58,867 nt of DNA from a virus. Below, in pieces: positions 1 to 58,867 of this stretch (the stretch's first letter is position 1; each line of letters begins with the position of its first letter). The translations under genes were made by a program, and so were the position numbers. A model generated the notes under the pieces. That model ran no database searches, was not told the origin of the DNA, and saw only the letters and a list, made by a program, of their open reading frames with translations. Location: positions 1 to 58,867 of the IMG/VR virus record IMGVR_UViG_3300012933_000180; one strand, given 5' to 3'.

Positions 1-171
1 ACGGATGAGCAGATTGAGGGAATTGCACAAATGACTTGTATTGGTATTTCGCCACATGAAGACACTTTAAATTTCGCCAGAGCAATCGAAGCCGCCCACG
101 GCATAAAGGATAACAAATGAAGCTCGAATGGAACAAGGCTCCAGTAAAAACACAATGGGGGCACGACATGA
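1..171. repeat. Terminal direct repeat copy A (171 bp, identical to 58697..58867)
   Basis: Both window ends read acggatgagcagattgaggg...caatgggggcacgacatga. The repeat lies inside coding sequence (3' end of ORF 58487..58816 and 5' end of ORF 117..386), so it looks like circular-assembly overlap or terminal redundancy. Confidence 0.9.
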
Positions 172-386
172 TGGAGACTTGTGTTGCCATTGATAAAAAT
201 CATACGCTGTCTCTGTATTGCGAAGAAAGCCAAATAGCTAAAGTGCCTAAAGTTTTGCGACCAAAATGGAAAAGCCTTACTGAGCGTGAAATCGAAGCGT
301 TGATTCTTGAAGGCGACACATACTGGTGGAATGCAGAAGACTACATTCGCAACGTCTTAGCCAAACTCAAGGAGAAGAACACATGA
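117..386 (+). CDS. Hypothetical early protein (89 aa)
   Basis: ORF track. ATGA coupling with the preceding ORF. The first 55 nt are duplicated at 58813..58867. No motif recognised. Confidence 0.6.
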   Translation: MKLEWNKAPVKTQWGHDMMETCVAIDKNHTLSLYCEESQIAKVPKVLRPKWKSLTEREIEALILEGDTYWWNAEDYIRNVLAKLKEKNT

Positions 387-517
387 ACTGCAAACACAAC
401 TGGATACCCAGCGACTTCGGTAAAGCACACCGAACGCCTAACAACTACCTATACCAATGCACACGGTGTAACCGAATGATCTCGGCACTGCTGAAGGACA
501 CCAATGAAAAACCTTAA
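383..517 (+). CDS. Small Cys/His protein, zinc-ribbon-like (44 aa)
   Basis: ATG overlaps the upstream stop (ATGA). GGAG lies 6-12 nt upstream. Sequence MNCKHNW...YQCTRCNRM has C3, H5 and a CxxC. Confidence 0.5.
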   Translation: MNCKHNWIPSDFGKAHRTPNNYLYQCTRCNRMISALLKDTNEKP

Positions 518-677
518 TCCCATGGAATTAGCTGCGGGTATGACCGATGAGATTCTCGAAGTCATATACAAGTACGAAGAAGCGATCATGCTTCCAACTG
601 TGCTGGGCATCCTAGACGTAATCAAGTACGACCTGATTCGATCGCAATGGATAGAAAGCGAGGAGGACGATGACTGA
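504..677 (+). CDS. Small acidic protein (57 aa)
   Basis: Hand-translated, below the ORF-track cutoff: MKNLNPMELAAGMTDEILEV...QWIESEEDDD. Overlaps its neighbours by 14 and 8 nt. Confidence 0.45.
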   Translation: MKNLNPMELAAGMTDEILEVIYKYEEAIMLPTVLGILDVIKYDLIRSQWIESEEDDD

Positions 678-888
678 CGAAGAACTGGAGGATAGACACA
701 CAGTAATCAAAGGCAAAGACTACTACAAGGTACCACCACTGCATCCCAACTCATGTATGGGGTGCGATCGAATATCAATCCCATGCAGTGGCATCGGATG
801 CGATGGTGGCAAACACGAAGATGAGTTCATTCTCATCGAATATTCAATGTCGGCACTAGCCCGATACATATCCCAAAGACTCACATAA
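670..888 (+). CDS. Small Cys-rich protein (72 aa)
   Basis: ORF track. SCMGC (CxxC) and PCSGIGC motifs suggest metal binding. Confidence 0.55.
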   Translation: MTDEELEDRHTVIKGKDYYKVPPLHPNSCMGCDRISIPCSGIGCDGGKHEDEFILIEYSMSALARYISQRLT

Positions 889-897
889 GGAAACATC

Positions 898-1902
898 ATG
901 CGTTACTCACACATCAAGACATCTATACACGAACAATTCAAGGCCAAGGACGGCAACAAAATCGTACCGTTCATCCTCGGTGCGCCGGGCGGTGGCAAAT
1001 CAGCGTGCGCTCGTGACATCATCTCCGAGCTTGACATCGACCCCGACAAAATCGTGGAGTTCACTGCCTCGCTTCGCGACCCTGTTGACGTACTGGGCAC
1101 GCCCAATAACACCGGCGAATACACACGCTGGGTTCCACCAGAGGAGTTCTACAAACTGCGCGCGGGTCAAGGACGCTCAGCACTCATTCTCGAGGAGCTG
1201 TCTGACGCACCGATCCCCATGCAGAACGCACTGTGCGGCATCATCTACGACCGCCGTGCCGGTAACCTAGCTCTGTCCAACGAGCTGTTCATCATCGCCA
1301 CAGGTAACCGCACCGAGGACAAATCGGGTGCCAACCGCATCACGTCCAAGCTGGCTAACCGTACTCGTCGCTTCGAGTTCGTGGAGAACATCGACGACTG
1401 GACTGAGTGGGCGCTCGACAACGACATCGACCCAGTGCTTATTCAGTTCCTGCGCTTCCGTCCCGGCCTGCTGTCCGACTTCGACGCCAATCGCTTCGCC
1501 AACCCAACGCCTCGTGCATGGGAGCGTGTCAACCTTATCCCATCATCGCTTGACGGTTCCTTGTTCTTTGACAACTGTGCAGGCGAGGTAGGTGACGGTG
1601 CGGCCGCTGAGTACACAGGCTTCAAGCGTATCTACGAATCACTGCCTAACATGGACGCGTTGTTGCTCGACCCCAAGGGTGCCGATGTACCGACTGATCC
1701 AGCTGTGCTGTATGCGATCACCGGTGCGCTTGCTCGTAAGGCCACCAAAGATAACTTCGATCGTGTGACCACGTATACCAACCGCTTGTCTCCTGAGTTC
1801 GGTGTCATGACCGTCAAGGACGCGATCAAGTTACAGCCTGCGATCAAGTCATCACGTAGCTTCATCGAGTGGGCGACCAAGAACGCAGAAGTGCTAATGT
1901 GA
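898..1902 (+). CDS. MoxR/CobS-like AAA+ ATPase (334 aa)
   Basis: Walker A GAPGGGKS, Walker B ALILEELSD, sensor-like IIATGNR. Single AAA module of MoxR/AAA_5 size. AAGGAA RBS. Confidence 0.9.
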   Translation: MRYSHIKTSIHEQFKAKDGNKIVPFILGAPGGGKSACARDIISELDIDPDKIVEFTASLRDPVDVLGTPNNTGEYTRWVPPEEFYKLRAGQGRSALILEELSDAPIPMQNALCGIIYDRRAGNLALSNELFIIATGNRTEDKSGANRITSKLANRTRRFEFVENIDDWTEWALDNDIDPVLIQFLRFRPGLLSDFDANRFANPTPRAWERVNLIPSSLDGSLFFDNCAGEVGDGAAAEYTGFKRIYESLPNMDALLLDPKGADVPTDPAVLYAITGALARKATKDNFDRVTTYTNRLSPEFGVMTVKDAIKLQPAIKSSRSFIEWATKNAEVLM

Positions 1903-2177
1903 AACACCTAGTATGGGAGGAAGAGTTCTTCTTCCTCGAAAACCCCACAAGGTTTGACCCCAGCCGGTGCCCAGTACACCATCTTAAAAAAGTAATCATA
2001 GGAGAACCAGCCAAACAGAGATACAAAATAAGTGTTGCGTATGTACAAAAAATAGGCAAGCGACAGTTCGCTGCGGAAGTCACTATGACTAACGCTGAGG
2101 AAACCCCTAAGCAAACGTTTCGCTCGCTAACAGAAGCTAAGGCATGGTGCCTAGCCATATACAGACTGGAGAATTAA
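1899..2177 (+). CDS. Hypothetical protein (92 aa from GTG; the track ORF starts at 1869)
   Basis: GTG overlaps the ATPase stop (GTGA). The C-terminal KQTFRSLTEAKAWCLAIY resembles small AP2/integrase-type DNA-binding folds (weak). Confidence 0.45.
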   Translation: MKHLVWEEEFFFLENPTRFDPSRCPVHHLKKVIIGEPAKQRYKISVAYVQKIGKRQFAAEVTMTNAEETPKQTFRSLTEAKAWCLAIYRLEN

Positions 2178-3050
2178 ATGGAACTAACCAAACTATCCGA
2201 CAAGGCACTGCTCGTCAAACTTACACAAAGAAAGGCAGCACTCACCAAGCGTGATAACGCACTGACAGCAACTGTGCAACAGCAATTCAATGACAACAGC
2301 TTGACCGTATCCACCAAACTGTTCCGTGACAAGAGCAGCCCGATCAACAAGATCGTAGCCAAGTACGCTGAGGTGTATGCGTACCACAAAGCCAACACGC
2401 TACCCTATGTGGATGCAGGGCCTCGTATCCTGCCAAGCACAATGTACTTCGAGTACACCAACGAGATGCGACAGCGTATCGCAGTGGTTGACAAGCTGAT
2501 CGACCAATGGATGCCACAGTATGACCAACTCGTACACGACGACGTCATGTTCCGTAACAGCGGCCAAGCAGCTGGGCGAGCATCGTCCACCGAGTACCCC
2601 AGTGCTGACCAGTTCCGAGCTGCGATGTCTAACGACATGCGGTTCCAGCCTATGCCTGATGCCCGTCACTTCTTGTTCGACCTGAGCGATGAAGACATGG
2701 CGGCGTTCAAAGCAGCTGAGAGCGAGACCATGCAGCTGGCCAACCAAGAGACCATCAACCGTATGCTCAAACCACTGGGTGACCTAGTGCGCCGACTCGG
2801 TGAGTATCAAGGTGGCAAGGGCGAGCGCTTTCACAACAGCCTCGTGGAGAACGTCATCGAAGGCTGTAAGACAGCACGTAAGTTATCAATCAACCCGACA
2901 GAGGAGTTACTAAATGAAATTAACACCATTGAGAGTCTTGCTACGACCTATCTCGACGGCGTGGAAATTATTAAAGGTTCTGCGAACTATCGAGCTGAAG
3001 CCCGTAGCAAACTCGACGCAGTTGCCGAGCGCTTGGGAGCTTTCTACTGA
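2178..3050 (+). CDS. Hypothetical protein, possibly a DUF3150-like partner of MoxR/VWA pairs (290 aa)
   Basis: ORF track. Starts 1 nt after the upstream stop. Size and position between the AAA+ and VWA genes fit DUF3150-type proteins. This family assignment is from memory and unverified. Confidence 0.6.
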   Translation: MELTKLSDKALLVKLTQRKAALTKRDNALTATVQQQFNDNSLTVSTKLFRDKSSPINKIVAKYAEVYAYHKANTLPYVDAGPRILPSTMYFEYTNEMRQRIAVVDKLIDQWMPQYDQLVHDDVMFRNSGQAAGRASSTEYPSADQFRAAMSNDMRFQPMPDARHFLFDLSDEDMAAFKAAESETMQLANQETINRMLKPLGDLVRRLGEYQGGKGERFHNSLVENVIEGCKTARKLSINPTEELLNEINTIESLATTYLDGVEIIKGSANYRAEARSKLDAVAERLGAFY

Positions 3051-3093
3051 TCGAGCCAATATTCTGGTTCGTGTGGATACCAGTCATATTCTC

Positions 3094-3264
3094 ATGACAG
3101 AAGCAACGTATAACGCGATCAAGCACCACCTGATTCGCTTGGACTACGACTACATAGGCACCAGCCGTGTGTGGAAGATTCACAACGACCAGAAGCTCTC
3201 AACCGAGCTGATGAACGCCAAACACTTAACCGCCATGCAAGTGGTACAGAAGTTAGAGCGATGA
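3094..3264 (+). CDS. Hypothetical small protein (56 aa)
   Basis: Internal ATG of track ORF 2914..3264, chosen because the upstream part overlaps 2178..3050. MTEATYNAIKHHLIRL... Confidence 0.35.
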   Translation: MTEATYNAIKHHLIRLDYDYIGTSRVWKIHNDQKLSTELMNAKHLTAMQVVQKLER

Positions 3265-3479
3265 AAAAGACGGACGCCAAAACATATACACGTACAGTTA
3301 AACGCAGCAGTACGTACGGCGTCAATGTGGTTGAGAAGGTAGACAAGTTCAAGACTATTAGCCACATCAACATCTTCATCAACGGTGTACCTGATAGATC
3401 GTTTGAGGTAGAGGGGAGCGTAGACATAGGCAGTGCGCTCATCACAGTAGGCACACATTTAAAACTGGAGAATAAATGA
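3261..3479 (+). CDS. Hypothetical small protein (72 aa)
   Basis: ATGA coupling at 3261. MKKTDAKTYTRTVKRSS... Confidence 0.5.
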   Translation: MKKTDAKTYTRTVKRSSTYGVNVVEKVDKFKTISHINIFINGVPDRSFEVEGSVDIGSALITVGTHLKLENK

Positions 3480-3667
3480 CAGAGATCGAATTCATGTTGC
3501 TTGTAGCGTGGGGGATTACCTTCGCGCTATACGTGACCAAACACATTGACTACAAACACGAACGCCGTATGTCAGGGATGCTGATGACAGCTATGAAAGA
3601 AGTAGCCGAGGGCAAGGCAACTATCACCATAGTAGACGGCGACCTACGAATCAAACACAAGGACTAA
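3476..3667 (+). CDS. Small membrane protein (63 aa)
   Basis: ATGA coupling. N-terminal hydrophobic helix FMLLVAWGITFALYV. Confidence 0.55.
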   Translation: MTEIEFMLLVAWGITFALYVTKHIDYKHERRMSGMLMTAMKEVAEGKATITIVDGDLRIKHKD

Positions 3668-3668
3668 C

Positions 3669-4784
3669 ATGGCAGTAACCACACTCGACCGTGCCAAGGT
3701 AGCAATCGTTACCCAGCACCCGTTCTTTGCATCCATCCTTATGAAGCGCAAGCTTATCGAGGACAACACCATCCCTACTGCCGCTGTCGACCAGCGCGGT
3801 CAGATTTACTACAACAAAGACTTCGTCGACAAGCTATCCGTTGACGAGCTCGTATTCCTGCTGTGCCATGAGGTCGGCCACGTTATCGGTCAACACGGAC
3901 TGCGACGCGGTACCCGTAACGCCAAGCGCTGGAACATCGCAGGTGACGCATGGATCAATGACATGCTCAAGGACGCAGGTGTCGGCCAACTAATCAGCGG
4001 TTGCGTAGACATGCCCGGCTCCAAGGACGAGACTGTTGACGTTATCTACAACAAGCTGCCCGATGACCCTGATGGTGACGGCCCCGGCGGTACAGGCAGT
4101 GACATCATCGAACGTGGTTCACCACTCACTCCCGAAGAGGCTGACCGCATCGACGCCGAGACCCGTGTAGAGATCGCCCAAGCAGCCCAAGCAGCCAAGG
4201 CACAGGGCAAGATGCCCGGCGCGTTAGCCAAGATCATCGCTGACCTCATTGACCCCGGCACTCCATGGCACGAGATTCTCGAACGCTACATGGTGTCGTT
4301 CACCAAGGGCGACTACTCGTGGGCTCGTCCTAACCGCCGCTTCGCTGACTATGCGTATCTGCCTAGCGTTGGCAAGAGCGCACAGATGGGTGAGCTCGTC
4401 GTCCAAGTCGACGTGTCAGGTTCTATCTCGCCTACCGAGCTTGCCCATTACAACGGCCACATGCAACGCATCATCGAGCAGTGCAGTCCCGAGCGTGTCC
4501 ATGTCTTGTACGTAGATACCGATGTATGTAAGCACGAGACCTTTGAGCGTAGCGAGGAGTTTGCTCTTGAGTTCTACTCTGGCGGCGGCACCGACATGGA
4601 GGCTGGCTTCACTTACCTAGACAAGAACGGCATTGACCCCGAGGTTTTTGTCTGCCTGACTGACGGCTACACGTCCTTCAACCCCGCCAATGCACCGACT
4701 TACCCAGTTGTTTGGTGTATTTCCTCTAACATCGAAGCGCCATACGGCGACAATATCCACTTTTCATTGGAGGAACCCAAATGA
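3669..4784 (+). CDS. VWA-domain protein with N-terminal zincin-like metallopeptidase domain (371 aa)
   Basis: HEVGH near the N-terminus. MIDAS motif VQVDVSGSIS in the C-terminal half. The architecture matches putative-metallopeptidase + VWA-like (DUF2201-type) proteins. Confidence 0.85.
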   Translation: MAVTTLDRAKVAIVTQHPFFASILMKRKLIEDNTIPTAAVDQRGQIYYNKDFVDKLSVDELVFLLCHEVGHVIGQHGLRRGTRNAKRWNIAGDAWINDMLKDAGVGQLISGCVDMPGSKDETVDVIYNKLPDDPDGDGPGGTGSDIIERGSPLTPEEADRIDAETRVEIAQAAQAAKAQGKMPGALAKIIADLIDPGTPWHEILERYMVSFTKGDYSWARPNRRFADYAYLPSVGKSAQMGELVVQVDVSGSISPTELAHYNGHMQRIIEQCSPERVHVLYVDTDVCKHETFERSEEFALEFYSGGGTDMEAGFTYLDKNGIDPEVFVCLTDGYTSFNPANAPTYPVVWCISSNIEAPYGDNIHFSLEEPK

Positions 4785-4936
4785 CCGAACCGACCAAAGT
4801 ATCTGATGCTTTCAACACACTGATCGACAAGTACAAGGAACTACTACAACAATGCTACGACGCGTTGGCTGACGACGCTGACCCGCAACAGCGGGCTACC
4901 CTGCGAGAAGCGCTAGGGCAATTCATTCAAAAGTAA
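4781..4936 (+). CDS. Hypothetical small helical protein (51 aa)
   Basis: Hand-translated: MTEPTKVSDAFNTLIDKYKELLQQCYDAL... ATGA coupling to the VWA gene. Followed by a terminator. Confidence 0.45.
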   Translation: MTEPTKVSDAFNTLIDKYKELLQQCYDALADDADPQQRATLREALGQFIQK

Positions 4937-4940
4937 CAAC

Positions 4941-4960
4941 ACCCGCTTCGGCGGGTTTTT
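4941..4960 (+). terminator. Rho-independent terminator (ACCCGC-UUCG-GCGGGU + U5)
   Basis: Perfect 6-bp stem with a UUCG tetraloop followed by ttttt, 5 nt after the stop at 4936. Confidence 0.8.
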
Positions 4961-4978
4961 CAATAGAAAGACAGACAT

Positions 4979-5650
4979 ATGGCAACCGTATACATCACAC
5001 AGCAACTCACCAAAGACATCCATCGTGTTATCTCTCGCATGCAGGACAACGAAGTAGCCGAGACAGTACCTGACCACGGCAAGTCAATCACCGTCAACGC
5101 CACAGAGATGCTCAACCACTTAGCATGGGGAGACCACCACCACCTCATGGCACAGCTACCCAAAGACTGGCTACGTCAGCCCGGCAGTGCCGATGTCAAC
5201 GTCATCTTGGGCGTCACCGAAGAGGGTAAGCCTAACAAACACTGCGTCAGCTACGCACAACTTAACGGATACTTCGAGCGACCATGCAACGACCGCTGGG
5301 GTGCGCCGCGACCTGAGGCTACCAAGCAGTGGTTCGAGCAACATATGCAGTTCACTGGTGCCGCTGAGACACTGGAGAAGATCAAGCAGCTCGATACCCG
5401 AGACGAGATCAACGCTAAATGGGCTAAGACATACGGCGACATCTCCAAGTTCTTGAGTAAGTGCAAGTCACTCAACGAGGCTCTCAAGTTGTGGCCCGGC
5501 CTGCAACTGTATGTTCCATCGCAGTACATCGAGCGTGTCAATACCAAGGTTGAGCGCAAGGCTCGCGAGACCGAGATCATTGCAACCGTTGACTTGGAGG
5601 AGTTAACCGCTAACGCTATCGCAGCCAAGCTGTCAGGTGTTGTTGCGTAG
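4979..5650 (+). CDS. Hypothetical protein (223 aa)
   Basis: ORF track. No motif recognised. Preceded by the 14-mer AGAAAGACAGACAT. Confidence 0.7.
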   Translation: MATVYITQQLTKDIHRVISRMQDNEVAETVPDHGKSITVNATEMLNHLAWGDHHHLMAQLPKDWLRQPGSADVNVILGVTEEGKPNKHCVSYAQLNGYFERPCNDRWGAPRPEATKQWFEQHMQFTGAAETLEKIKQLDTRDEINAKWAKTYGDISKFLSKCKSLNEALKLWPGLQLYVPSQYIERVNTKVERKARETEIIATVDLEELTANAIAAKLSGVVA

Positions 5651-5663
5651 GTAATACTACGTA

Positions 5664-5692
5664 TATACACACGTTGGCTTAGGCAATACATT
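5664..5692 (+). promoter_or_regulatory. Predicted sigma70-type promoter TATACA-N17-TACATT
   Basis: The -10 TACATT is identical to three other predicted promoters. It sits 23 nt upstream of ATG 5716. The -35 overlaps a one-mismatch copy of the 12-mer ACATACACACGT. Confidence 0.45.
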
Positions 5693-5715
5693 CACCCACT
5701 CACAGAAAGACAGAC

Positions 5716-6582
5716 ATGAGATTCGAAGTAGCAAAGAGAAAATATGAAAATGGACGTATTCAAAATCCTGCCAAGGGTAGATCGTTAGGTAACTACACGT
5801 ATCTGTACAAGGTTAATGATGATCGTTATGAGATTCGCAAGCCTTGGAATACATATGAAGAGAATCCTGACTTCGTTCAAGGTAAGCCCGGATCAAACCG
5901 ATACACCCAAATCAGCGATACGCTACCTATCCTCAGCATCGAGCGCGGTAAGGATGGATACACCTACTTGGAAGTATTGTTCGAAGAGAAGCATCACAAC
6001 CAGACCGTCGCTAACGTAGTACACAAACACGTAGTTACGCTGTCAGCGTTCATCTGCAACCATGAGATGCGCTTCTGGTTCCATGGTAGCAACCTAGGCC
6101 GTGGACGCAACGCTCCAGTGTTGGCCAAGGGATTGCGCTTCAAGGTAGACGAGCGTAACTACATGACGCTCTCATTGGACGAAGGCCAAGCAGTTACGAC
6201 AGACAAGCGCTTCGTTAATCGCGAGAAGGCTAAGCCTATCAATGCTCGGCTCAAGCAGCTCAACAAGCTAGGCACTGTGCTCACCAAGTTGGAAGCCGTT
6301 ACCAAGGCTGACGTTAACGGTGCTATCGACTCGGCGTATAGCTATAACAACAACACACTTCTGGACAAGGTGTTCGGCACTGACGAGTTCGAGGTCATAG
6401 ATGTGTACCGCACATTAGCCACGACGTTAGGGTATTGGGAACGTAGCCAGTCAGCGCCCGACCCTATCAAAGACCAGTACAACCGTTTTCAAAATGCGAT
6501 GACAACATTGCGCAAGCATGCGTACAAACGTGCTGGGGTATTAGAAGCTAAGGAGATCGCAAATGGGCTCACTACAAACTGA
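5716..6582 (+). CDS. Hypothetical protein (288 aa)
   Basis: ORF track. No motif recognised. Confidence 0.7.
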   Translation: MRFEVAKRKYENGRIQNPAKGRSLGNYTYLYKVNDDRYEIRKPWNTYEENPDFVQGKPGSNRYTQISDTLPILSIERGKDGYTYLEVLFEEKHHNQTVANVVHKHVVTLSAFICNHEMRFWFHGSNLGRGRNAPVLAKGLRFKVDERNYMTLSLDEGQAVTTDKRFVNREKAKPINARLKQLNKLGTVLTKLEAVTKADVNGAIDSAYSYNNNTLLDKVFGTDEFEVIDVYRTLATTLGYWERSQSAPDPIKDQYNRFQNAMTTLRKHAYKRAGVLEAKEIANGLTTN

Positions 6583-7075
6583 AATCTTCACAAAGGTATT
6601 ACCAAAAATGAAATCACTTGAAACACTTACATTCGACGACGGCGGCGCACCACTCACTAACGCAGAGCCGATCAGCAAGACGCAACAGATTTGGGAGTTC
6701 GTGTACAACAACCCACGAACCACACGCAGGAAGGTAGCGGCGGCAGTACCCGAAGTTAAGGAGGCTGATGTCAGTTCGTTCTTGTCGCAGATGACACGAG
6801 CTAATCGGTTGACGCGTGAGGAAGTCGACGGCGTGTACCAGTACATGACACCAGCGGGAATGACAAAGTTTCCTAGAGGTTCGGAGTTTCGGCTACAAGC
6901 TATTAAGAAGGCACAGGCGGCAAGGGCCGAAGCTAATAAGCAGCCAAAGGATAAACCCACCAAAGCCGCTAAGCCGACCCCAGTGGTCAGCGATGCGAAA
7001 GCATACGTGGAGACACTCAACGTCAAAGAGGCCCGCGAACTCTACGCTGCATTGAAAGAGGTGTTCTCGTTGTGA
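6563..7075 (+). CDS. Putative winged-helix DNA-binding protein (170 aa)
   Basis: AAGGAG RBS 7 nt upstream. ISKTQQIWEFVYNNPRTTRRKVAAAV...FLSQMTRANRLTRE resembles a wHTH. Lys/Ala/Pro-rich linker follows. Confidence 0.55.
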   Translation: MGSLQTEIFTKVLPKMKSLETLTFDDGGAPLTNAEPISKTQQIWEFVYNNPRTTRRKVAAAVPEVKEADVSSFLSQMTRANRLTREEVDGVYQYMTPAGMTKFPRGSEFRLQAIKKAQAARAEANKQPKDKPTKAAKPTPVVSDAKAYVETLNVKEARELYAALKEVFSL

Positions 7076-7536
7076 GAAAGAAATCGAAGTACAAACCCAA
7101 AGGTGTACGCCTTGATGTGATGACGTATGTCAAGTCAGGGCTACTACCACTGACATCCGTTGGTAGCGAAGCGGTCAAGCTGAAGATCATTAACCATGAT
7201 GCACTTAACAACCTGCGCATGGGTACTGGTACAAAGATGGACTTCGATACCTTAGTGGAGTCGATGAACGTGGCGGAAGCATTCGCCATGCACAACCACG
7301 GAGATGACTGGAGGCCTGAGATCAGGACTGCGCTCGATGCGTTGTTTGACTTAGGCGTTCGAGCAAAACATAACGGGATGAAATTTGTAATGAAATCAAA
7401 TGAACTCACTGCACTACAACTAGCCATGGAGATACACGATGCTCAACTGGATGAGGCAACGGTTAACCAACTTGAGCAAGCCATACACACCGTCAGAAAA
7501 ATCAGACAGCTCAAGCAAGCAAGGGTTATCAAATGA
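7072..7536 (+). CDS. Hypothetical protein (154 aa, GTG start)
   Basis: GTGA overlap with the upstream stop. All-helical look. No motif. Confidence 0.6.
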   Translation: MRKKSKYKPKGVRLDVMTYVKSGLLPLTSVGSEAVKLKIINHDALNNLRMGTGTKMDFDTLVESMNVAEAFAMHNHGDDWRPEIRTALDALFDLGVRAKHNGMKFVMKSNELTALQLAMEIHDAQLDEATVNQLEQAIHTVRKIRQLKQARVIK

Positions 7537-7730
7537 GAACGCGACACCCGATGTGGGCGTTACAGCTAACAAGTCAACGCCTATTCAAACCCCTAATAAC
7601 AACGACAGGTATGCCCTACCTGACATTCAACACAAAGAAAGAAGCCCTAGCGCACACAACACAATGGAACATCAAAGCCCGCCCCGTGAAAATTATGGTC
7701 ACAGTTCAAGTACTGGATGTGTGGGGATAA
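7533..7730 (+). CDS. Hypothetical small protein (65 aa)
   Basis: ATGA coupling. ORF track. Confidence 0.5.
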   Translation: MRTRHPMWALQLTSQRLFKPLITTTGMPYLTFNTKKEALAHTTQWNIKARPVKIMVTVQVLDVWG

Positions 7731-7903
7731 ACGAACTGCACGAACGACTCGTTCGTATGGAAACCCGCATGTCCAAGTTTATGGAAGCGTTCGGCATCGA
7801 CCCAACGACAGGCAAGTTCAGCCGACATGTTGACCGACAACTCTACGTCCCCAAGTATTACCCTAACCACCCAACCAACCAAAGGAACGATCATGGCTAC
7901 TAA
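7721..7903 (+). CDS. Hypothetical small protein (60 aa from GTG)
   Basis: 3' part of track ORF 7439..7903. The upstream part overlaps better ORFs. INELHERLVRMETRMSKFMEAFG looks like a real helix. Start uncertain. Confidence 0.35.
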   Translation: MGINELHERLVRMETRMSKFMEAFGIDPTTGKFSRHVDRQLYVPKYYPNHPTNQRNDHGY

Positions 7904-8213
7904 AAAGAAACCCACAACAACTCACAAAGAAGTTCTACCTGAAGATCACCCGCTGTACCATGTGTTCTATGCAGCTATCGAGCAAGCCATGTTCGGTAAA
8001 GGCCAACGACACGGCGGCAACGTGACGCCATTCCTCGAGCAGCCTTGGGCGCACTATCTCAAGATGCACGGTCGCGGCTTCGCTACTGGCCAAGCAGCCA
8101 AGAAGCTGGAAGAAGCAGCATCACTACGCAGCGGTGAAGCGTTCGAGACAGAAGTGTTCGGCGCTATGGTGTACCTCGGCATGGCCATCTTGCACGAGCG
8201 AGGTGAAGTATGA
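7893..8213 (+). CDS. Hypothetical all-alpha protein (106 aa)
   Basis: AAGGAA RBS. FGKGQRHGGN...QPW...GQAAKKLEEA is faintly reminiscent of phage MazG-like NTP-pyrophosphatase families. Not claimed. Confidence 0.55.
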   Translation: MATKKKPTTTHKEVLPEDHPLYHVFYAAIEQAMFGKGQRHGGNVTPFLEQPWAHYLKMHGRGFATGQAAKKLEEAASLRSGEAFETEVFGAMVYLGMAILHERGEV

Positions 8214-19904: not shown

Positions 19905-22900
19905 TCAGTCTCCCATCATTCCAGTTACAAATTTCTTGGTGTCCTTGTTGTATTGAACACCGCCCACTGTTTGACGTTCGCGCTGACGCTGTTGCATTGG
20001 AGCTTCAGTCAAACTAGACATTGGCTTACGGGAGAACCCGGCTGCCGAACGGCTGTCTTGTAGCTTACGCCACTTATCACGAGCTTCCAGCATAGAGGTA
20101 GTGTCGCCTGACTTCTTAGCTTGGATGTACTCGTTCTTGATGGAGGTAGCCTTCTCCTCGAACGAAGTCTTAGCCTCGTACAAAGCGTTAGTCTTCATGC
20201 GGCGGATGGTGTCTTGGCTAATCGGCAGACCAATAGCCTTGGCAAAACTTTGCGCAGCGTTGATTTCGTCAGCAGACAGTAGCACGTCACCGTTCTTACG
20301 AGTCACACCTTCGTCAGCCTCTCGAATAGCCTTCATTACATCAGACAAGCCCTTTGGCAGCAGCTTCTCAATACCGCGATAGTATTCGCCACGCTTGATG
20401 TCACCCAAGCCGTCGCCAATCTTCATGGCCATACCTCCGGTAGCACCGGCCAGTACACCAAACCCCATCTCAGCAACACCCTTACGCGACAACTCCATGT
20501 CAGTAAATGGCAGGATAGACAACGCGTTGCCCATACCGATCTTGCCAGACAAGTCCAGACCCATGGCGGTAGGCGTTCCACGCATAATCACTTGAGCCAT
20601 GTCTTCGCCGTAGGCTTCAGCCAGCATGTTGTACGCCGCCAACTCCACATCGGTAGGCTTGTCGTCATCGCCGAAGGCGTCGCCCAGTGCGTTGAGCATG
20701 TAGGCAAAAGCCGCGAAGCCGGGCATACCAACCAAGCCAGCAAGCGCACCCGTGTGGGCAACAGTCAGAGCCAGCGCTTTGCGAGCAGCATGCTGGATTT
20801 CTGGGGTCTCACCTTTTACCGAGTTATGCACCAGCTTAGTCAACAACGTCAACTGGATAAGCTGGAACTTACGGAACTGCAAGGCCACCTTACCGGCGTT
20901 GGTGTTAAACGCACGTGGGGCGTTCAAGCGTGTGTAGTCGCCGTGCGTCTGGCTGATAACCTTACTGGCGTAGTCGATGGCTTCTTGTACGTTGCCGGTC
21001 TTGGCCAACTCCATGCGGTAAGCTGCCATGGCAGTGGACACACGGTTGATAGCTTCCATCTTCTGCGAAGCCGTACGCAGTACACGATCCACAACGTTGA
21101 TGCCACGGGCCGCCGCACTCTCACCAGCAACTTGGAACTTACCCAACTCGGTCTCCATACCGATGTCGATCTGCTGACGATCCACCAAAGTAGAAATCAT
21201 CTTGCGTACATCAGCGGGCACGTTGGCAAAGTCAAACTGCTCGTCAATGCGACTGTTCTTAATCAGGCCGCCAAGTTGCGAGTACGCCTTACCGAGGGCA
21301 GCAACCGACTTGAAGTAGTTGTGGCGACCGGCCATAAATGGAACCGACAGCAAGAATGGCTGTGTCAAGTTCTGGATGTAGTACGTCGGGCTAGTAGCCA
21401 GCATCCACAGAGACGTCATGCGAGCAGTCTTCTCCGCCCAAGTAGACGCGTCGTACGTCATGGACTGCATGTGGCGAGCCCAGATTTCATTGAACAAGTC
21501 AGACTTGGCCGCTTGGTCACCGCCTTCACGAACCTGCTTGCGCATCTCGTTGAACGCATCCATGGTCTGTGAGTTGTACTTGGCAGCAGCCAAGAACTGA
21601 GCATCGGCTCGGCCTTGCGTGGCAAACGAGCGCAGCATGTCGATCTCACCAGCAACACCCTTACGGCGCATCTCTGACTTGCGTGAGCTAGCATCGGCCA
21701 ACGCAGCAAGGTACAGGTCAGACACCAACTCACGAGTCTTAACTAGAGCGGCGCGCTCGTCGCCACTGGGGTAGTTGTTCAGCTCAGAGTCCACAGTAGC
21801 GCGGAGCTTGTTGAACGCTGACAGCAGGCCACCGGCCATGTCATTCTTCGCGTCCTCTTTTGCACGGTACTCGACCTCACCACCCTTGAACTGAGCAGCC
21901 AACTGGTCACGCAGCTCGATAGCCGACATACGGCTCTCAGCAAAGCTGACGTGGTACTCGTTGGGGTCGTTCTGCATCTTGGCCTGCTCCGCAGGAGACG
22001 CAGCCATGTACTTGGCAGACTTGGCCACCACCACAAAATCACCGAAGCGACGCAGTGGAGCGTATGGCAAGAACTCGTTAGACGAGAACAAACGTGTGTA
22101 CTCTTTGAGTTGAGCAGCCTTGGCCTTGTTGAGCTTGTCGACTTTACCTTGGTCACCCTTGTCCTGAGCATGCTTGATAAGCGCGTCGTACTCAGAGTTG
22201 GTAGCTTCGATCAGCGTGGCCTTCTTATTGGCCAGCATGGAGTCGCCATGCTTGAACACTTCACGAATCCACTCTTGAGATTCCTCGGACAGTCGGTTGA
22301 AGCGCTGCTCCATCACTGGATCAGGTGCGACTTTTGTCGCGGTAGCTGCGCGCCAGTCAGGGCTGAAACCCCACTTGGCTTCGCGTGTCATGTCATACAC
22401 AAAACGGTTTGCGCTGGCAGCACCAGTACCACGGTCAGCATCAGGGATGCGGTTGTACAAGCTGGCGATACGCTCGACCTCGCGCTCCTCACGACCCACC
22501 ATGGCAGCTCGCTCACGGTAGATTTTGAGAATCTTGCTGGCGGACTTAATACCTTGCTTGACTGCACGGGACAGCAAGTCCTCGGTGAACACCACAGTGT
22601 TCAGTGCTTTGTCAGCCGTGGCAGACACGGCCTCAGTCAGCAGCTTAGCCGCAGGTGAGTTTAGGAGGGTTTCTTTATTCCCTTGGGCAGTTCCACCCCC
22701 TGAGCGGATTTGGCGAACATCTCCGCCAGCTTGGGGTTTGGTCGAAACTTGTCCTGACTTAGCACTTTGTTTTTTGGCATAGTCTGTTTGTTTAACTTCT
22801 GCATGTACCTTCTCCATGAACGCCGCAGCTTGCGGCAAGTTGTTTTCCTTGAGGAACTTCATGCCTGCGTCAGAGGCAGTGAACGCCCACAACTGCGCAA

Positions 22901-25900
22901 ACAGTTCTTCGCGGACACGGTCAGCCGTCATACCCTCGTTGTCTTCCAACGGGTAGAACATCAGCTCAGCCAATGGTGACTCAGGGTCTGCTTTAACGTG
23001 AGCCAACAACTCAGCCACGATGTCGCCCTTAGGCATGGCAGAAACTGTGCCATTCTTGAACTTCAAGTTGAACTGAGGCTCGCCGGAGTATAGGCCGCCG
23101 TTTTCCAAGCCCTCGATGGCGTGGCCGATTTCGTGCAGCGTAGCAATAGTGGCATCGTACTCAGAAGCCAGAGCGTCAGCGCTAAACACGATTGCGCGTT
23201 CACCATCAATGGTGGTGTAGATAGCGTCCCAAGCCACAGGGTCGTTCGTTACATACCAAGCGTCGATAGCCTTCACAGTGTGAGACAGACCGGACTTGTG
23301 CAAAACCGCCACAGCTTTGACCACACCTTTGTGATCGAGCAAGTCTTGGAGCGTAGTCTCTTCGGCGGCAAAGTTGTTGCCTTCACCATCACGCATCGGG
23401 ATGGCCGAGCGCTTCTCGTAGATGTCGCCTGTCAGCTCTTTGGTGACGTTAGTGTCTTCGACTTCCTCGGCTTGGTCGATACCGAAGTCTTCTACCTTGG
23501 CTTCCTTAGATGCTCTGGTTTGCTTAGCTTCAACCTTCTTCAGCGTTACTTGTAGCTTGGCTTCTTGCTCCACAATAAGTTTGGCAAGTCGTGTTTCCAA
23601 GGATGGGTCTTCCTCGACCATGGCTTTCAACGCATCAATAGCGTCTAAGATTCCTATGATTGAGTTGTTCTGAGCTTCAGTAGCTGCGTTGGCAGTATCG
23701 CCAATACCGGCCTTGGCGTTACCTTGTTTCCACAAAGTAGACTGGTCATCGCCATACCCAAGGGTGCCGCTTTCTGAAGCATCAACACCAAGCTCGCGCA
23801 GCTTAGCCGCAACCTCAGCCGGAATTTCTTCCCCTGTGGTAGATACCTTTTTCTTGGAAAAGTCCGCTACTTCAAGCAGTGACCGCGCTTGTGCAGGGCT
23901 CATACCCATTTCAACAGCAGCAGCCACCAGCTCGGTAGTGCTTCCGATACTACGTACTGTTTTAGCTGTAATGCCGTACTGAGCTCCAATTTCATCAGCC
24001 ACTTTGCCAGTCAGACCGTATGGAGCATTTTTCATCGCCGCCAAATACTGATTGGCAATCTTAATGTCACGTTCAGGGTTCGTGCTAGTAGCAAAGCGAC
24101 GTTTCATCACGGCTTCGACGGCTGCTTGACTTTGTTCGTCGTTAAGCATCTCTACATCAGACAGCAGTGACGTACCTTGCTGACCTTGAGTATCACCCTC
24201 GGACTTAAGGAGTTCTTGAGACTCGGCAGTGTTGCCAGTCAACTCACCCAAGGCCAGCTGGTCTTCCAACGAAAGGTTGGATACACGCTCCGCAGGGATG
24301 CCTTCTTGAACGGCAGTGTCCTCTGTGGTTTCTGGGGCCACGTATGCAGTTCCCTGCTGTGGTTGATTAAACACCACGCGGCGCTTGCGCGTTACAACGG
24401 GAGCTTGTTGGTTGGCACCAGTTCCGAGAAGTGAAACTTCTGGGCCACTTGATGGAGCGATGGGGGCAACTCCACCCACTCCCCCAACTCCTTGGGCGAC
24501 ATTAGCATTTGATCCAGTAGGAGCCACGCCTCCTGATACGACACCGCCCCCAACATCCACGCTTGGTGCAACTCCGGTGTCAGTGGGAACTGTTGTGCCG
24601 ACATTTTGTTGATCCTTAGGTACGCGGTACGCCTTGCCTACTTTGGCAACACGCTGCTTTTCTTGGAAGTCTGCTTCGATCTGAGCCAGAGTTTTCTCTA
24701 CGGCTCCATAACGGTTCTTCTTCAGCTCAGCGGCCACCTCACCCAACTGGGCGGGGGTAAGCAATTCATTACCCACAAGGTCGACAGCCTTGGTGAACAG
24801 GTCGATGCGTTGCTGGATTGGCGTACCTTTCTTGGACGTCAATTTCAGCTTGTACTTTTCGGCAGCTTGGGTCAACTCATCAGCAATGTCGCCGGTAGTA
24901 GTCTGGGCCGCAGTCTCGGCTTGCGTAGCAGCAGGAGGCACGTACCCGGGGTATCGGGCTTTAAGTGTGTCTTCTGGGGTAAGCGCGGCAGTTCCGTCTG
25001 ACGTGACGTTGATAGCCTCTGAGGAAGGGCGAACCGATCCATCAGGGTAGGTAATCATGTTGCCAGCCATGGGGTCGTACCCAATACCCAGCAATGGTGG
25101 GCGCTGTACTAACTGGTCATCCGCAGTGGGGTTAGCCCCGCCGAGCAAGTTGACCGTATGCGAACGGTTGTTCAGGTAAGCAACACCGCCACCACCAATG
25201 CCGCCGAGAGCGCCACCCATCAGGGCAGAGCCAAACACGCCTTTGCTGCGGTCAATCGTGGGGTCGTACTGGTGCGCAGCAATGTTGGCCGAAGCCTTAG
25301 TCGCACCTTCTTCACCGAACTCACTGGCAAATTCTTTGGCAGCCAGCTTGCGGATACCCTGCTTACCAGCACCAGCCATAACGGCTTCCATACCAGTACC
25401 GCCAGTGATTGCGCCGATCAGCGCTGGAACCACGGACGCATCACGTGCAGCAGCACGGGCAAGCATTTCCTTTTGTTCCTGTGGAACATTGGGGCTAGCC
25501 ATGACTTGGGCGTAGGCATCAGCCGCAGCATCACCGCCGCCAGCAGCACCGCTCATAGCAGCACCAGCACCACGGCCAGCCCATGTAGAACCCTTAGCGC
25601 CAAGGCCCGCCAGCTCAGCAGCACCAACAGCAGTCTTAACGCCACGACCGATAGGGCCGACGTTACCGACAATCTTGGCAGCAGTCTGGATAGGGGAGGT
25701 GACGATGTACTTACCAACACCCTTGGCAGCTTCCCAGCCACCCTCGTCGATGGCTTGATTCAGCTCACCTTCAGATTGCTTGACGATGTCACTTTGGTTT
25801 TGCTCACCCTCAGTGATGATGGATTGCAGACCGCGAGACAGTGGGTTATCCACGGACACGAAGTCGCTCATGGATTTGGCCAAGCCTAAGCCAGAGTTAA

Positions 25901-26066
25901 CCGCCGTGATGACGGTGTCATTGGCTACCGCAAACGGGTTGCGGGTTTTAGGTGCTGTCTTAGCCTTTGGCCCGGCTTCGATTTCATCCCACACACTACG
26001 CGTGGAGGTGTCCGCTTTAGGCAAGCTAGGTTTGCCAGATTCAATCTCATCCCAAATGCTTGCCAT
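19905..26066 (-). CDS. Giant internal virion/ejection protein with PLxRFG motif (2053 aa)
   Basis: Uninterrupted 6.2-kb ORF. PLRRFG at nt 22041..22058. HEIGH at 23121..23135. Gly/Ala-rich hydrophobic N-terminal third. Several TM-like stretches in the C-terminal quarter. Last large gene of the virion arm. Confidence 0.85.
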   Translation of the reverse strand: MASIWDEIESGKPSLPKADTSTRSVWDEIEAGPKAKTAPKTRNPFAVANDTVITAVNSGLGLAKSMSDFVSVDNPLSRGLQSIITEGEQNQSDIVKQSEGELNQAIDEGGWEAAKGVGKYIVTSPIQTAAKIVGNVGPIGRGVKTAVGAAELAGLGAKGSTWAGRGAGAAMSGAAGGGDAAADAYAQVMASPNVPQEQKEMLARAAARDASVVPALIGAITGGTGMEAVMAGAGKQGIRKLAAKEFASEFGEEGATKASANIAAHQYDPTIDRSKGVFGSALMGGALGGIGGGGVAYLNNRSHTVNLLGGANPTADDQLVQRPPLLGIGYDPMAGNMITYPDGSVRPSSEAINVTSDGTAALTPEDTLKARYPGYVPPAATQAETAAQTTTGDIADELTQAAEKYKLKLTSKKGTPIQQRIDLFTKAVDLVGNELLTPAQLGEVAAELKKNRYGAVEKTLAQIEADFQEKQRVAKVGKAYRVPKDQQNVGTTVPTDTGVAPSVDVGGGVVSGGVAPTGSNANVAQGVGGVGGVAPIAPSSGPEVSLLGTGANQQAPVVTRKRRVVFNQPQQGTAYVAPETTEDTAVQEGIPAERVSNLSLEDQLALGELTGNTAESQELLKSEGDTQGQQGTSLLSDVEMLNDEQSQAAVEAVMKRRFATSTNPERDIKIANQYLAAMKNAPYGLTGKVADEIGAQYGITAKTVRSIGSTTELVAAAVEMGMSPAQARSLLEVADFSKKKVSTTGEEIPAEVAAKLRELGVDASESGTLGYGDDQSTLWKQGNAKAGIGDTANAATEAQNNSIIGILDAIDALKAMVEEDPSLETRLAKLIVEQEAKLQVTLKKVEAKQTRASKEAKVEDFGIDQAEEVEDTNVTKELTGDIYEKRSAIPMRDGEGNNFAAEETTLQDLLDHKGVVKAVAVLHKSGLSHTVKAIDAWYVTNDPVAWDAIYTTIDGERAIVFSADALASEYDATIATLHEIGHAIEGLENGGLYSGEPQFNLKFKNGTVSAMPKGDIVAELLAHVKADPESPLAELMFYPLEDNEGMTADRVREELFAQLWAFTASDAGMKFLKENNLPQAAAFMEKVHAEVKQTDYAKKQSAKSGQVSTKPQAGGDVRQIRSGGGTAQGNKETLLNSPAAKLLTEAVSATADKALNTVVFTEDLLSRAVKQGIKSASKILKIYRERAAMVGREEREVERIASLYNRIPDADRGTGAASANRFVYDMTREAKWGFSPDWRAATATKVAPDPVMEQRFNRLSEESQEWIREVFKHGDSMLANKKATLIEATNSEYDALIKHAQDKGDQGKVDKLNKAKAAQLKEYTRLFSSNEFLPYAPLRRFGDFVVVAKSAKYMAASPAEQAKMQNDPNEYHVSFAESRMSAIELRDQLAAQFKGGEVEYRAKEDAKNDMAGGLLSAFNKLRATVDSELNNYPSGDERAALVKTRELVSDLYLAALADASSRKSEMRRKGVAGEIDMLRSFATQGRADAQFLAAAKYNSQTMDAFNEMRKQVREGGDQAAKSDLFNEIWARHMQSMTYDASTWAEKTARMTSLWMLATSPTYYIQNLTQPFLLSVPFMAGRHNYFKSVAALGKAYSQLGGLIKNSRIDEQFDFANVPADVRKMISTLVDRQQIDIGMETELGKFQVAGESAAARGINVVDRVLRTASQKMEAINRVSTAMAAYRMELAKTGNVQEAIDYASKVISQTHGDYTRLNAPRAFNTNAGKVALQFRKFQLIQLTLLTKLVHNSVKGETPEIQHAARKALALTVAHTGALAGLVGMPGFAAFAYMLNALGDAFGDDDKPTDVELAAYNMLAEAYGEDMAQVIMRGTPTAMGLDLSGKIGMGNALSILPFTDMELSRKGVAEMGFGVLAGATGGMAMKIGDGLGDIKRGEYYRGIEKLLPKGLSDVMKAIREADEGVTRKNGDVLLSADEINAAQSFAKAIGLPISQDTIRRMKTNALYEAKTSFEEKATSIKNEYIQAKKSGDTTSMLEARDKWRKLQDSRSAAGFSRKPMSSLTEAPMQQRQRERQTVGGVQYNKDTKKFVTGMMGD

Positions 26067-58490: not shown

Positions 58491-58816
58491 CAGACAAGCA
58501 AGAGCAGGGTGAGCCAAAGAAAAAGTGGAAAGGCCAAATTGACAATGATGAATTCTTTGAATCGTTAGAGCAAGAGCAGGGTGAGCCTGTGGCGCAGTGT
58601 TGTTCAGCAGGAATAGCGCACGATTGCCACGCTGGTGATGGGTGTCGAATTGTTGAACGAATCAAATCCACACCACAACCAGCACAGAAGCCGCTGACGG
58701 ATGAGCAGATTGAGGGAATTGCACAAATGACTTGTATTGGTATTTCGCCACATGAAGACACTTTAAATTTCGCCAGAGCAATCGAAGCCGCCCACGGCAT
58801 AAAGGATAACAAATGA
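58487..58816 (+). CDS. Hypothetical early protein (109 aa); its 3' end is repeated at 1..120
   Basis: ORF track. The C-terminal LTDEQIEGIAQMT...FARAIEAAHGIK motif is common in small phage early proteins. Confidence 0.6.
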   Translation: MTDKQEQGEPKKKWKGQIDNDEFFESLEQEQGEPVAQCCSAGIAHDCHAGDGCRIVERIKSTPQPAQKPLTDEQIEGIAQMTCIGISPHEDTLNFARAIEAAHGIKDNK

Positions 58817-58867
58817 AGCTCGAATGGAACAAGGCTCCAGTAAAAACACAATGGGGGCACGACATGA
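58697..58867. repeat. Terminal direct repeat copy B (identical to 1..171)
   Basis: Same 171 nt as the window start. Reading frames continue seamlessly across the junction. Confidence 0.9.

Follow-up and report, generated by a model that had tools for sequence, protein, structure and literature searches.

The viral genome record IMGVR_UViG_3300012933_000180 (58,867 nucleotides; this whole stretch is called the window below) carries at positions 898–4960, the locus studied here, genes for an AAA+ ATPase and for a zincin metallopeptidase fused to a von Willebrand factor A (VWA) domain, and between them a gene for a DUF3150-family protein. Judged from sequence comparison, the ATPase and the zincin-VWA protein are very probably the gp24/gp25 pair of phage N4, and the locus as a whole is very probably the phage copy of a three-protein cassette of mobile elements. 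N4-like phages share only 14 core genes, gp24 and gp25 among them, and in N4 these two belong to the middle transcripts (PMC4193335); the pair recurs in hundreds of other phage genomes, and DUF3150 is its fixed third partner in one large branch. The two-enzyme pair was already known; its ternary form with DUF3150 is present in sequence annotations (cyanophage MinM2) and, by our literature search, in no paper. Our preferred reading of its function is put forward tentatively: the cassette may be an ATP-driven machine that captures, remodels and cuts a protein while a mobile element becomes established or replicates inside the cell.

The ATPase, the zincin-VWA protein and DUF3150

The first gene of the locus (898–1902, + strand) encodes an ATPase of 334 residues and is preceded by a good Shine-Dalgarno sequence (aaggaaacatcATG). 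The Walker A (GAPGGGKS, residues 28–35, nucleotides 979–1002) and Walker B (LILEELSD, residues 96–103, nucleotides 1183–1206) motifs lie in a single module of the MoxR/midasin (AAA_5) type, and the protein matched PHROG 1297 with E = 7e-64. As a single sequence it scored 18.1 bits against Pfam AAA_5 (E = 0.0027), under the 22-bit cut-off, and phmmer returned no PDB match for it. Single-sequence PDB searches gave nothing useful for any of the three core proteins, and only profiles helped: with a profile built from nine ATPase sequences, matches to midasin's AAA modules (E = 9e-22) and to CbbQ (E = 4e-6) were obtained. Residues P30, G31, G33, K34, N137, R155 and P205-R206 were invariant across the phage and plasmid homologues, and the P-loop PGxGK[ST] was kept in 66 of 67 homologues. 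By tblastn, ATPase matches were obtained in 781 isolate phage records, mostly N4-like and all below 60% identity; matches to N4-like phages reached E = 5e-41, and the 'N4 gp24-like protein' of DSS3phi2 was matched at E = 8e-10. A sequence-only reading of the locus, which preceded these searches, had called the protein a MoxR-type, single-module AAA+ ATPase, and the Walker motifs together with the midasin and CbbQ profile matches bear this out.

The second enzyme (3669–4784, + strand, 371 residues) is the N4 gp25 homologue. Pfam assigned it to PF13203 (DUF2201_N, putative metallopeptidase, clan Peptidase_MA; E = 6e-50) and, over the cut-off, to PF09967 (DUF2201, VWA-like; E = 3e-20). The zincin motif HEVGH occupies residues 67–71 (HEVGHVIGQH at nucleotides 3867–3896), and MIDAS (the metal-ion-dependent adhesion site) is formed by DVSGSIS at residues 248–254 (DVSGS at nucleotides 4410–4424), T308 (4590–4592) and D332 (4662–4664). 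Homologues were found in 601 isolate phage records (tblastn, all below 60% identity) and in 116 plasmid records. At ~30% overall identity between phage and plasmid proteins, H67, E68, H71, H76, D93, D248, S250, S252, T308 and D332 were invariant, and HExxHxxxxH, DxSxS and GGT were intact in 80 of 80 full-length homologues. Loss of either HExxH or MIDAS residues in orthologues had been named by the sequence-only reading as a result that would count against it; neither motif was lost. H76 and D93 are candidate third zinc ligands. In an AlphaFold2 (AF2) model (mean predicted local distance difference test score, pLDDT, 75) the C-terminal half adopts the VWA fold, for which the best Foldseek match was the MIDAS domain of human midasin (MDN1), followed by integrin I domains, Ro60 and NorD from the NorQD complex; confidence is low in the linker, residues 130–240. 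A profile of the peptidase half gave weak matches to M48 peptidases (E = 7e-4) and to the minimal zincin selecase (E = 1e-3). Taken together, the Pfam assignments, the invariant residues and the Foldseek matches uphold the earlier call of an HExxH zincin fused to a VWA/MIDAS domain, and we conclude that the zincin domain is a predicted metallopeptidase with intact catalytic residues. The literature search found no characterised member of DUF2201_N.

The protein also matched PHROG 1314 (E = 1.5e-94), which is labelled 'HNH endonuclease'. The label is an error, since the proteins carry HExxH and MIDAS motifs and Pfam places them as metallopeptidase plus VWA-like. It has been carried into dozens of deposited annotations of Vibrio and Escherichia phages (for example OZ196215.1 and NC_027381.1).

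The third core protein, of 290 residues (2178–3050, + strand, good Shine-Dalgarno sequence), had no direct match in Pfam (E ≤ 0.1), PHROG or NCBIfam. An exhaustive phmmer search with it returned 2401 cluster representatives at E ≤ 1e-3; among 60 diverse representatives, six matched PF11348 (DUF3150), the best at E = 9e-10. Its identity to the protein annotated as DUF3150 in cyanophage MinM2 is 26% (E = 2e-15), and among isolate phages a homologue was found only in the cyanophage lineage of MinM2, Pag-Yong1 and Pra-JY27, in which it is annotated as DUF3150. D26 is one of its conserved acidic residues. In its AF2 model (pLDDT 85.9, predicted template modelling score 0.75) a small beta-sheet packs against a long bundle of helices. 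The model superposed on predicted DUF3150 phage proteins in BFVD with TM-scores of 0.77–0.94, including a 'DUF3150 domain-containing protein' (TM-score 0.77, E = 5e-13). Foldseek matches of the model to the PDB were non-specific helical-bundle matches, all with E > 0.2, and were rejected; a sub-threshold match of the DUF3150 profile to GapR/UPF0335 in the PDB (E = 0.12) was likewise rejected as noise. We conclude that this open reading frame (ORF) encodes a predicted divergent DUF3150 protein, a conserved third member of the cassette. The literature search found nothing on DUF3150 function.

The make-up of these proteins bears on one alternative, that the cassette serves as a chelatase or in cofactor insertion, either as a viral CobS/CobT that hijacks the host CobN to raise cobalamin or as a metal-centre maturase of the NorQD or CoxDE kind. 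In a published survey, two-gene AAA+/vWA clusters of viruses are taken to be cobST; its authors state that the 'cobT' of cyanophages frequently bears a peptidase annotation, and they propose CobN hijacking (Liu et al., 2021; PMC8651126). NorD is among the structural matches of the VWA domain, and one bacterial triad adjoins a class II ribonucleotide reductase gene. On the other side, neither the Pfam families CobS_N, CobT and CobT_C nor the NCBIfam CobS/CobT equivalogs TIGR01650 and TIGR01651 were matched, in agreement with the view, behind the sequence-only reading, that this is not an ordinary chelatase. The HExxHxxxxH motif, invariant in all 80 full-length homologues, would be needless for a chelatase; the plasmid copies described below lie among transfer genes, not cob genes; and no ribonucleotide reductase or cob family was among the matches of the window ORFs scanned, with no full-window scan for these families made. 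We consider a role as a chelatase or in cofactor insertion very improbable.

Distribution and surroundings of the cassette

Conservation was examined in a clade of 70 related viral contigs, in which the VWA protein is 73–90% identical to that of the window. In the clade the genes run from the ATPase through variable small ORFs to DUF3150 and through further variable small ORFs to zincin-VWA, after which come ORFs of 51 and 223 residues. The order of the triad was seen in at least 60 loci, and DUF3150 was present in 62. This order is also kept in phages of the same ~60-kb type whose DUF3150 protein is 42–45% identical, in a distant contig (L071), in cyanophage MinM2 and in plasmids of Burkholderia, Paraburkholderia, Caballeronia, Cupriavidus, Ralstonia and Rhodovastum. 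In each of the 11 plasmids found by both searches, the VWA gene had DUF3150 directly upstream. Among 80 bacterial loci retrieved via DUF3150, a sample that came from a narrow plasmid alignment and is biased to Burkholderiaceae, the rest being alphaproteobacterial, all three genes were present in 78, and the remaining two loci end at a contig edge. The neighbourhood check proposed in the sequence-only reading thus gave a divided answer: the three core genes are kept together in phages, plasmids and bacteria, and the small ORFs vary. The ATPase, the VWA domain and the zincin are under purifying selection, and their genes are tied to that of DUF3150.

In MOBH/MPF_T plasmids of Burkholderia the triad lies just upstream of virB11, virB2, virB3, virB4, TraI and TraD, and in a Rhodovastum plasmid it lies between a gene for a Toprim protein and the genes for a zeta toxin and ParB; the neighbours on annotated plasmids are genes of type IV secretion or of replication. 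Several further arrangements were recorded around plasmid and cellular copies. Genes for a Toprim primase and a class II ribonucleotide reductase come after the triad in a proteobacterial metagenome-assembled genome (L158, 10692–14363). Pseudovibrio axinellae (L162, 7962–15449) has the permuted order DUF3150, DUF5983, ATPase and VWA, and next come genes for a DUF4942 protein and a DnaN homologue. Upstream of the triad, the plasmids of Burkholderia and Ralstonia that were examined (L083, 5075–6613; L084, 4303–5823; L075, 2248–3768) encode a hypothetical protein of ~510 residues with no Pfam family, which may be a further plasmid-specific partner; in the two Burkholderia plasmids it is followed by a DUF3717 gene. 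The large hypothetical proteins beside plasmid and cellular copies had no Pfam families. In one distant viral contig (IMGVR_UViG_3300017565_000023; 3877–7203 and 10520–11518) an Nmad5-domain protein (PF18757, nucleotide-modification associated, E = 1.6e-15) is encoded between the ATPase and VWA genes, and a DUF3150-like gene is displaced 3.3 kb downstream.

The window ends in an exact direct terminal repeat of 171 bp (1–171 and 58697–58867). It is thus a complete genome of ~58.7 kb opened at an arbitrary position, being either a terminally redundant molecule or a circular assembly. A megablast of the region against isolate phages returned nothing, so the phage is one without a cultured close relative; the window scans found no tRNA and no Rfam match. 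A block of genes on the + strand starts at ~56.4 kb and wraps through position 1 to ~19.3 kb. The cassette lies in this block, upstream of the genes for DNA polymerase A, a PD-(D/E)XK nuclease, a helicase and a DUF927 primase-helicase, and all structural genes are on the − strand. Also on the − strand is an ORF of 2053 residues (19905–26066) with no Pfam family and no PDB sequence match, whose C-terminal ~900 residues matched PHROG 10089 ('DarB-like antirestriction', E = 2e-63) as well as further PHROGs of giant virion proteins. The product may be polyvalent and ejected; it showed no recognisable signature of an N4-type virion RNA polymerase.

This arrangement can be set against a second alternative, that of a virion-assembly chaperone in which the MoxR-vWA pair folds or assembles structural proteins and the zincin trims them. 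Such a role has been put forward for a pair of this kind in group 2.2 jumbo phages, with reference to a MoxR-vWA pair needed for tail development in Acidianus two-tailed virus (Iyer et al., 2021; PMC7824862), and in N4-like roseophages the gp24/gp25 homologues adjoin a second virion-protein gene module expressed in mid-phase (PMC4193335). In the window, however, the cassette is in the replication arm, on the opposite strand to all structural genes, and the N4 homologues are middle, not late, genes (PMC4193335). Further, the cassette is found with all catalytic residues on conjugative and on non-mobilisable plasmids and on bacterial contigs that build no virions. We regard virion assembly as an unlikely function. 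Because DUF3150 is a fixed partner and the intact cassette occurs on conjugative plasmids, neither a purely virion-related role nor a role in B12 metabolism is likely.

The list of ORFs in 898–4960 comprises 898–1902 (334 residues), 2178–3050 (290), 3476–3667 (63), 3669–4784 (371) and 4781–4936 (51), all five with a strong Shine-Dalgarno sequence. Three further starts had been called by hand and were borne out, namely GTG at 1899 (92 residues, with a GTGA overlap with the ATPase stop), ATG at 3094 (56 residues, in the frame of a 2914–3264 ORF and 43 nucleotides past the stop at 3050) and ATG at 3261 (72 residues, ATGA overlap); no convincing Shine-Dalgarno sequence was seen upstream of these. 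More generally, the ORFs, the four motifs and the terminator of the sequence-only reading were all found where it had placed them. Antisense ORFs within the locus are all of 115 residues or fewer, lie inside conserved coding sequence and were treated as chance.

The four small ORFs between the core genes appear, from their patchy conservation, to be lineage-variable passengers. The first (1899–2177, + strand; 102 residues if started at GTG 1869), a weak call without Pfam or PHROG match, had homologues in only 11 clade loci at ≥70% coverage, with a median identity of 36%. The second (3094–3264, + strand), also a weak call, had homologues in three clade loci only. The third (3261–3479, + strand; 102 residues from GTG 3171) had no Pfam or PHROG family match and homologues in two to three clade loci, two of them at ≥70% coverage. 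The fourth (3476–3667, + strand) encodes 63 residues with one hydrophobic, helix-length stretch (FMLLVAWGITFALYV), has a good Shine-Dalgarno sequence (ctggagaataaATG) and is lineage-specific, with a homologue in 0 of 70 clade loci. Downstream of the VWA gene, the ORF of 51 residues (4781–4936, + strand) has an ATGA overlap and a strong Shine-Dalgarno sequence (ggaggaacccaaATG), which would couple its translation to that of the VWA gene; it was present in 55 clade loci (median identity 39.5%) and had no significant Pfam or PHROG match. The sequence-only reading had grouped all the ORFs around the two enzymes as coupled partners of no assigned function. One of them, DUF3150, is indeed a conserved partner; the small ORFs are not.

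A hairpin at 4941–4960 (+ strand; ACCCGC-TTCG-GCGGGT followed by TTTT) has a 6-bp GC-rich stem, a UUCG loop and a T run, and is the sole terminator-like site on the + strand within 1–8000. It is a predicted Rho-independent terminator that would close the cassette. A hairpin with a T run was found at the equivalent place in 34 of 74 loci, with differing stem sequences; in clade relatives it lies ~160 nucleotides past the VWA stop, with several different stems, and in phage Pollock, as in plasmids of Burkholderia and Ralstonia, it stands directly 3′ of the VWA gene. Since the hairpin and T run close the string after the VWA gene (plus a small ORF), zincin-VWA is the last core gene of the transcription unit. 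Just past the terminator, an ORF of 223 residues (4979–5650) is kept across the wider ~60-kb phage family (26–27% identity in two of its members, L076 and L078, E = 1e-18 to 1e-24; clade median identity 36.0%). It has no family match. It was considered as a fourth subunit and rejected, being confined to that phage family and absent from the distant triads and plasmids.

A possible role in establishment or replication

In the tentative reading preferred here, the MIDAS metal ion would clamp an acidic residue of a protein target, by analogy with midasin acting on Rsa4/Ytm1 and with CbbQ-CbbO and NorQ-NorD (PMC7159879). The ATPase ring would pull on or remodel the clamped target, which the fused zincin would then cut. 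DUF3150 would be the third subunit, serving either as a substrate receptor or adaptor or as a regulated first substrate. Its median identity in the clade is 65.1%, as against 80.5% for the ATPase and 79.3% for zincin-VWA, and this faster evolution would suit a subunit that faces the target. The cassette would act inside a newly entered cell, on a protein that hinders the establishment or replication of the element; such a role would leave out capsid or tail construction and cobalamin synthesis. Establishment or replication is suggested because the cassette lies in the replication and middle-gene arms of phages and in the transfer and replication backbones of plasmids.

As to the timing of expression, the sequence-only reading had labelled the module early. 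The terminal repeat makes the start of the window arbitrary, so that "early" cannot be read from position alone, and the N4 homologues are described as middle genes. Early expression of the cassette can be suggested solely by way of those homologues.

Several points weigh against the preferred reading. N4-like phages, CRP-7, actinobacterial plasmids and a Sphaerotilus plasmid carry the dyad without a detectable DUF3150, which is therefore not universally required. A hidden DUF3150 was looked for in the N4-like phages and CRP-7, by a hidden Markov model on the fetched loci, by tblastn of a consensus against all isolate phages and by hhalign against CRP-7 gp16, and none was found. The literature search found no experimental work on any family member, no function for N4 gp24/gp25, and none on MinM2. 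Gene neighbourhood is weak evidence of function, and the pair of the N4-like roseophages, next to mid-phase virion-protein genes, fits the assembly alternative (PMC4193335). The peptidase may also act only on the cassette's own proteins.

The sequence-only reading had suggested capture and cleavage, or remodelling, of a host protein, possibly one of defence. In a counter-defence protease of this kind, the VWA adaptor would seize a protein of host immunity shortly after the DNA has entered, to be inactivated by the AAA+ motor and the zincin. The cassette is common to phages and conjugative plasmids, which face the same host barriers, and DUF3150 evolves faster than the two enzymes. The genes around some cellular dyads are of conflict type (a DUF262 protein, a CRISPR RAMP protein, a MazF toxin), MoxR-vWA cores are known scaffolds of predicted conflict systems (PMC7159879), and zincin peptidases are, according to the literature, the commonest domain in polyvalent conflict proteins of phages and plasmids. 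In contrast, none of the observations is specific to defence: PADLOC-DB gave no match (E ≤ 0.01) for the three core proteins or for the two ORFs downstream, and the neighbours of the cassette are replication or transfer genes. The pair consists of strictly conserved core genes across N4-like phages of very different hosts, whereas accessory anti-defence genes are usually patchy; the enzymes are ~80% conserved in the clade, and no arms-race diversification was seen; and a survey of anti-defence genes in leading regions names no VWA, AAA or peptidase genes. We take counter-defence to be rather unlikely.

Returning to establishment or replication, a more specific form of this reading can be stated, which we hold to be distinctly unlikely as it stands. 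The triad would be a dedicated establishment machine of mobile DNA that works alike in phages and in conjugative plasmids. It would amount to a small midasin divided over separate proteins and equipped with a protease, and would strip and cut a protein bound tightly or covalently either to the element, as this enters or replicates, or to the replication machinery of the host. DUF3150 would be its substrate receptor, and the whole would be a prokaryotic counterpart of Cdc48-Wss1-type extraction and cleavage. Tractable test systems are at hand in N4, in the cultured cyanophages MinM2 and Pag-Yong1 and in the Burkholderia plasmids. The cassette is widespread, and nothing found here overturns what a specialist would expect.

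Comparison with known systems

The closest known counterpart is the gp24/gp25 pair of N4 and its relatives (Schitoviridae), to which both window proteins are ~30–33% identical over >90% of their length (E = 1e-37 to 5e-41). gp25 has the same two-domain VWA architecture, with HExxH and MIDAS intact, and the N4-like pair likewise sits among early, middle and replication genes, outside the structural arm. Escherichia phage Pollock has two genes annotated "N4 gp24-like" and "N4 gp25-like", and its 'N4 gp25-like metallopeptidase' is 32.8% identical to the window protein (E = 1e-37). In the same phage (L002, 4181–5969) a gene for an HNH homing endonuclease with a NUMOD4 domain has been inserted into the gp24-like ATPase gene, which is left as two ORFs. 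In the N4-like phages, in contrast, the two genes are adjacent and DUF3150 is not detectable, whereas five ORFs including DUF3150 lie between them in the window; the window is also a genome of ~58.7 kb without N4-like nucleotide similarity, and no N4-type virion RNA polymerase was recognised in it.

The sequence-only reading had reasoned from known MoxR-VWA pairs, and its pairing logic was sound. The pair is not peculiar to this phage, being shared with N4-like and jumbo phages and with plasmids. The tblastn matches of the two proteins are mostly N4-like phages of Escherichia, Pseudomonas, Vibrio, Klebsiella, Erwinia, Achromobacter and other hosts, and include rV5-like and jumbo phages. For the group 2.2 jumbo phages, a MoxR AAA+ protein with a vWA protein bearing an N-terminal metallopeptidase has been described (PMC7824862). 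The two-protein architecture is the same, and RaK2 and PBECO4 are among the matches of the window ATPase; the paper deals with a dyad and makes no mention of DUF3150 or of copies on plasmids.

Among solved structures, midasin (Rea1/MDN1) is the best relative of both the ATPase and the VWA/MIDAS domain. Its MIDAS clamps an acidic residue of the ligand and its AAA ring pulls (PMC7159879). However, midasin, a eukaryotic protein, has its six AAA modules in one giant polypeptide, lacks a peptidase and acts on pre-ribosomes, whereas the window encodes separate small proteins, with a zincin and DUF3150 in addition. A single-module AAA+ ring with a VWA/MIDAS adaptor is the design of CbbQ-CbbO, NorQ-NorD, RavA-ViaA, CoxD-CoxE and CobS-CobT/BchI-BchD, and CbbQ and NorD were among the matches obtained here. 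The chelatases, moreover, have in CobN/BchH a third, substrate-holding subunit that parallels the three-part design of the cassette. In none of these systems is there a peptidase on the VWA subunit, and DUF3150, at 290 residues, is unlike CobN in size.

A ternary organisation is also known from the vWA-MoxR-VMAP conflict systems, which occasionally have metallopeptidase effectors fused to the vWA protein (Kaur et al., 2020; PMC7159879). As in the cassette, MoxR and vWA proteins are there joined by a dedicated third protein. These systems are cellular, belong to multicellular prokaryotes and carry variable effectors, whereas in the window the third protein is DUF3150.

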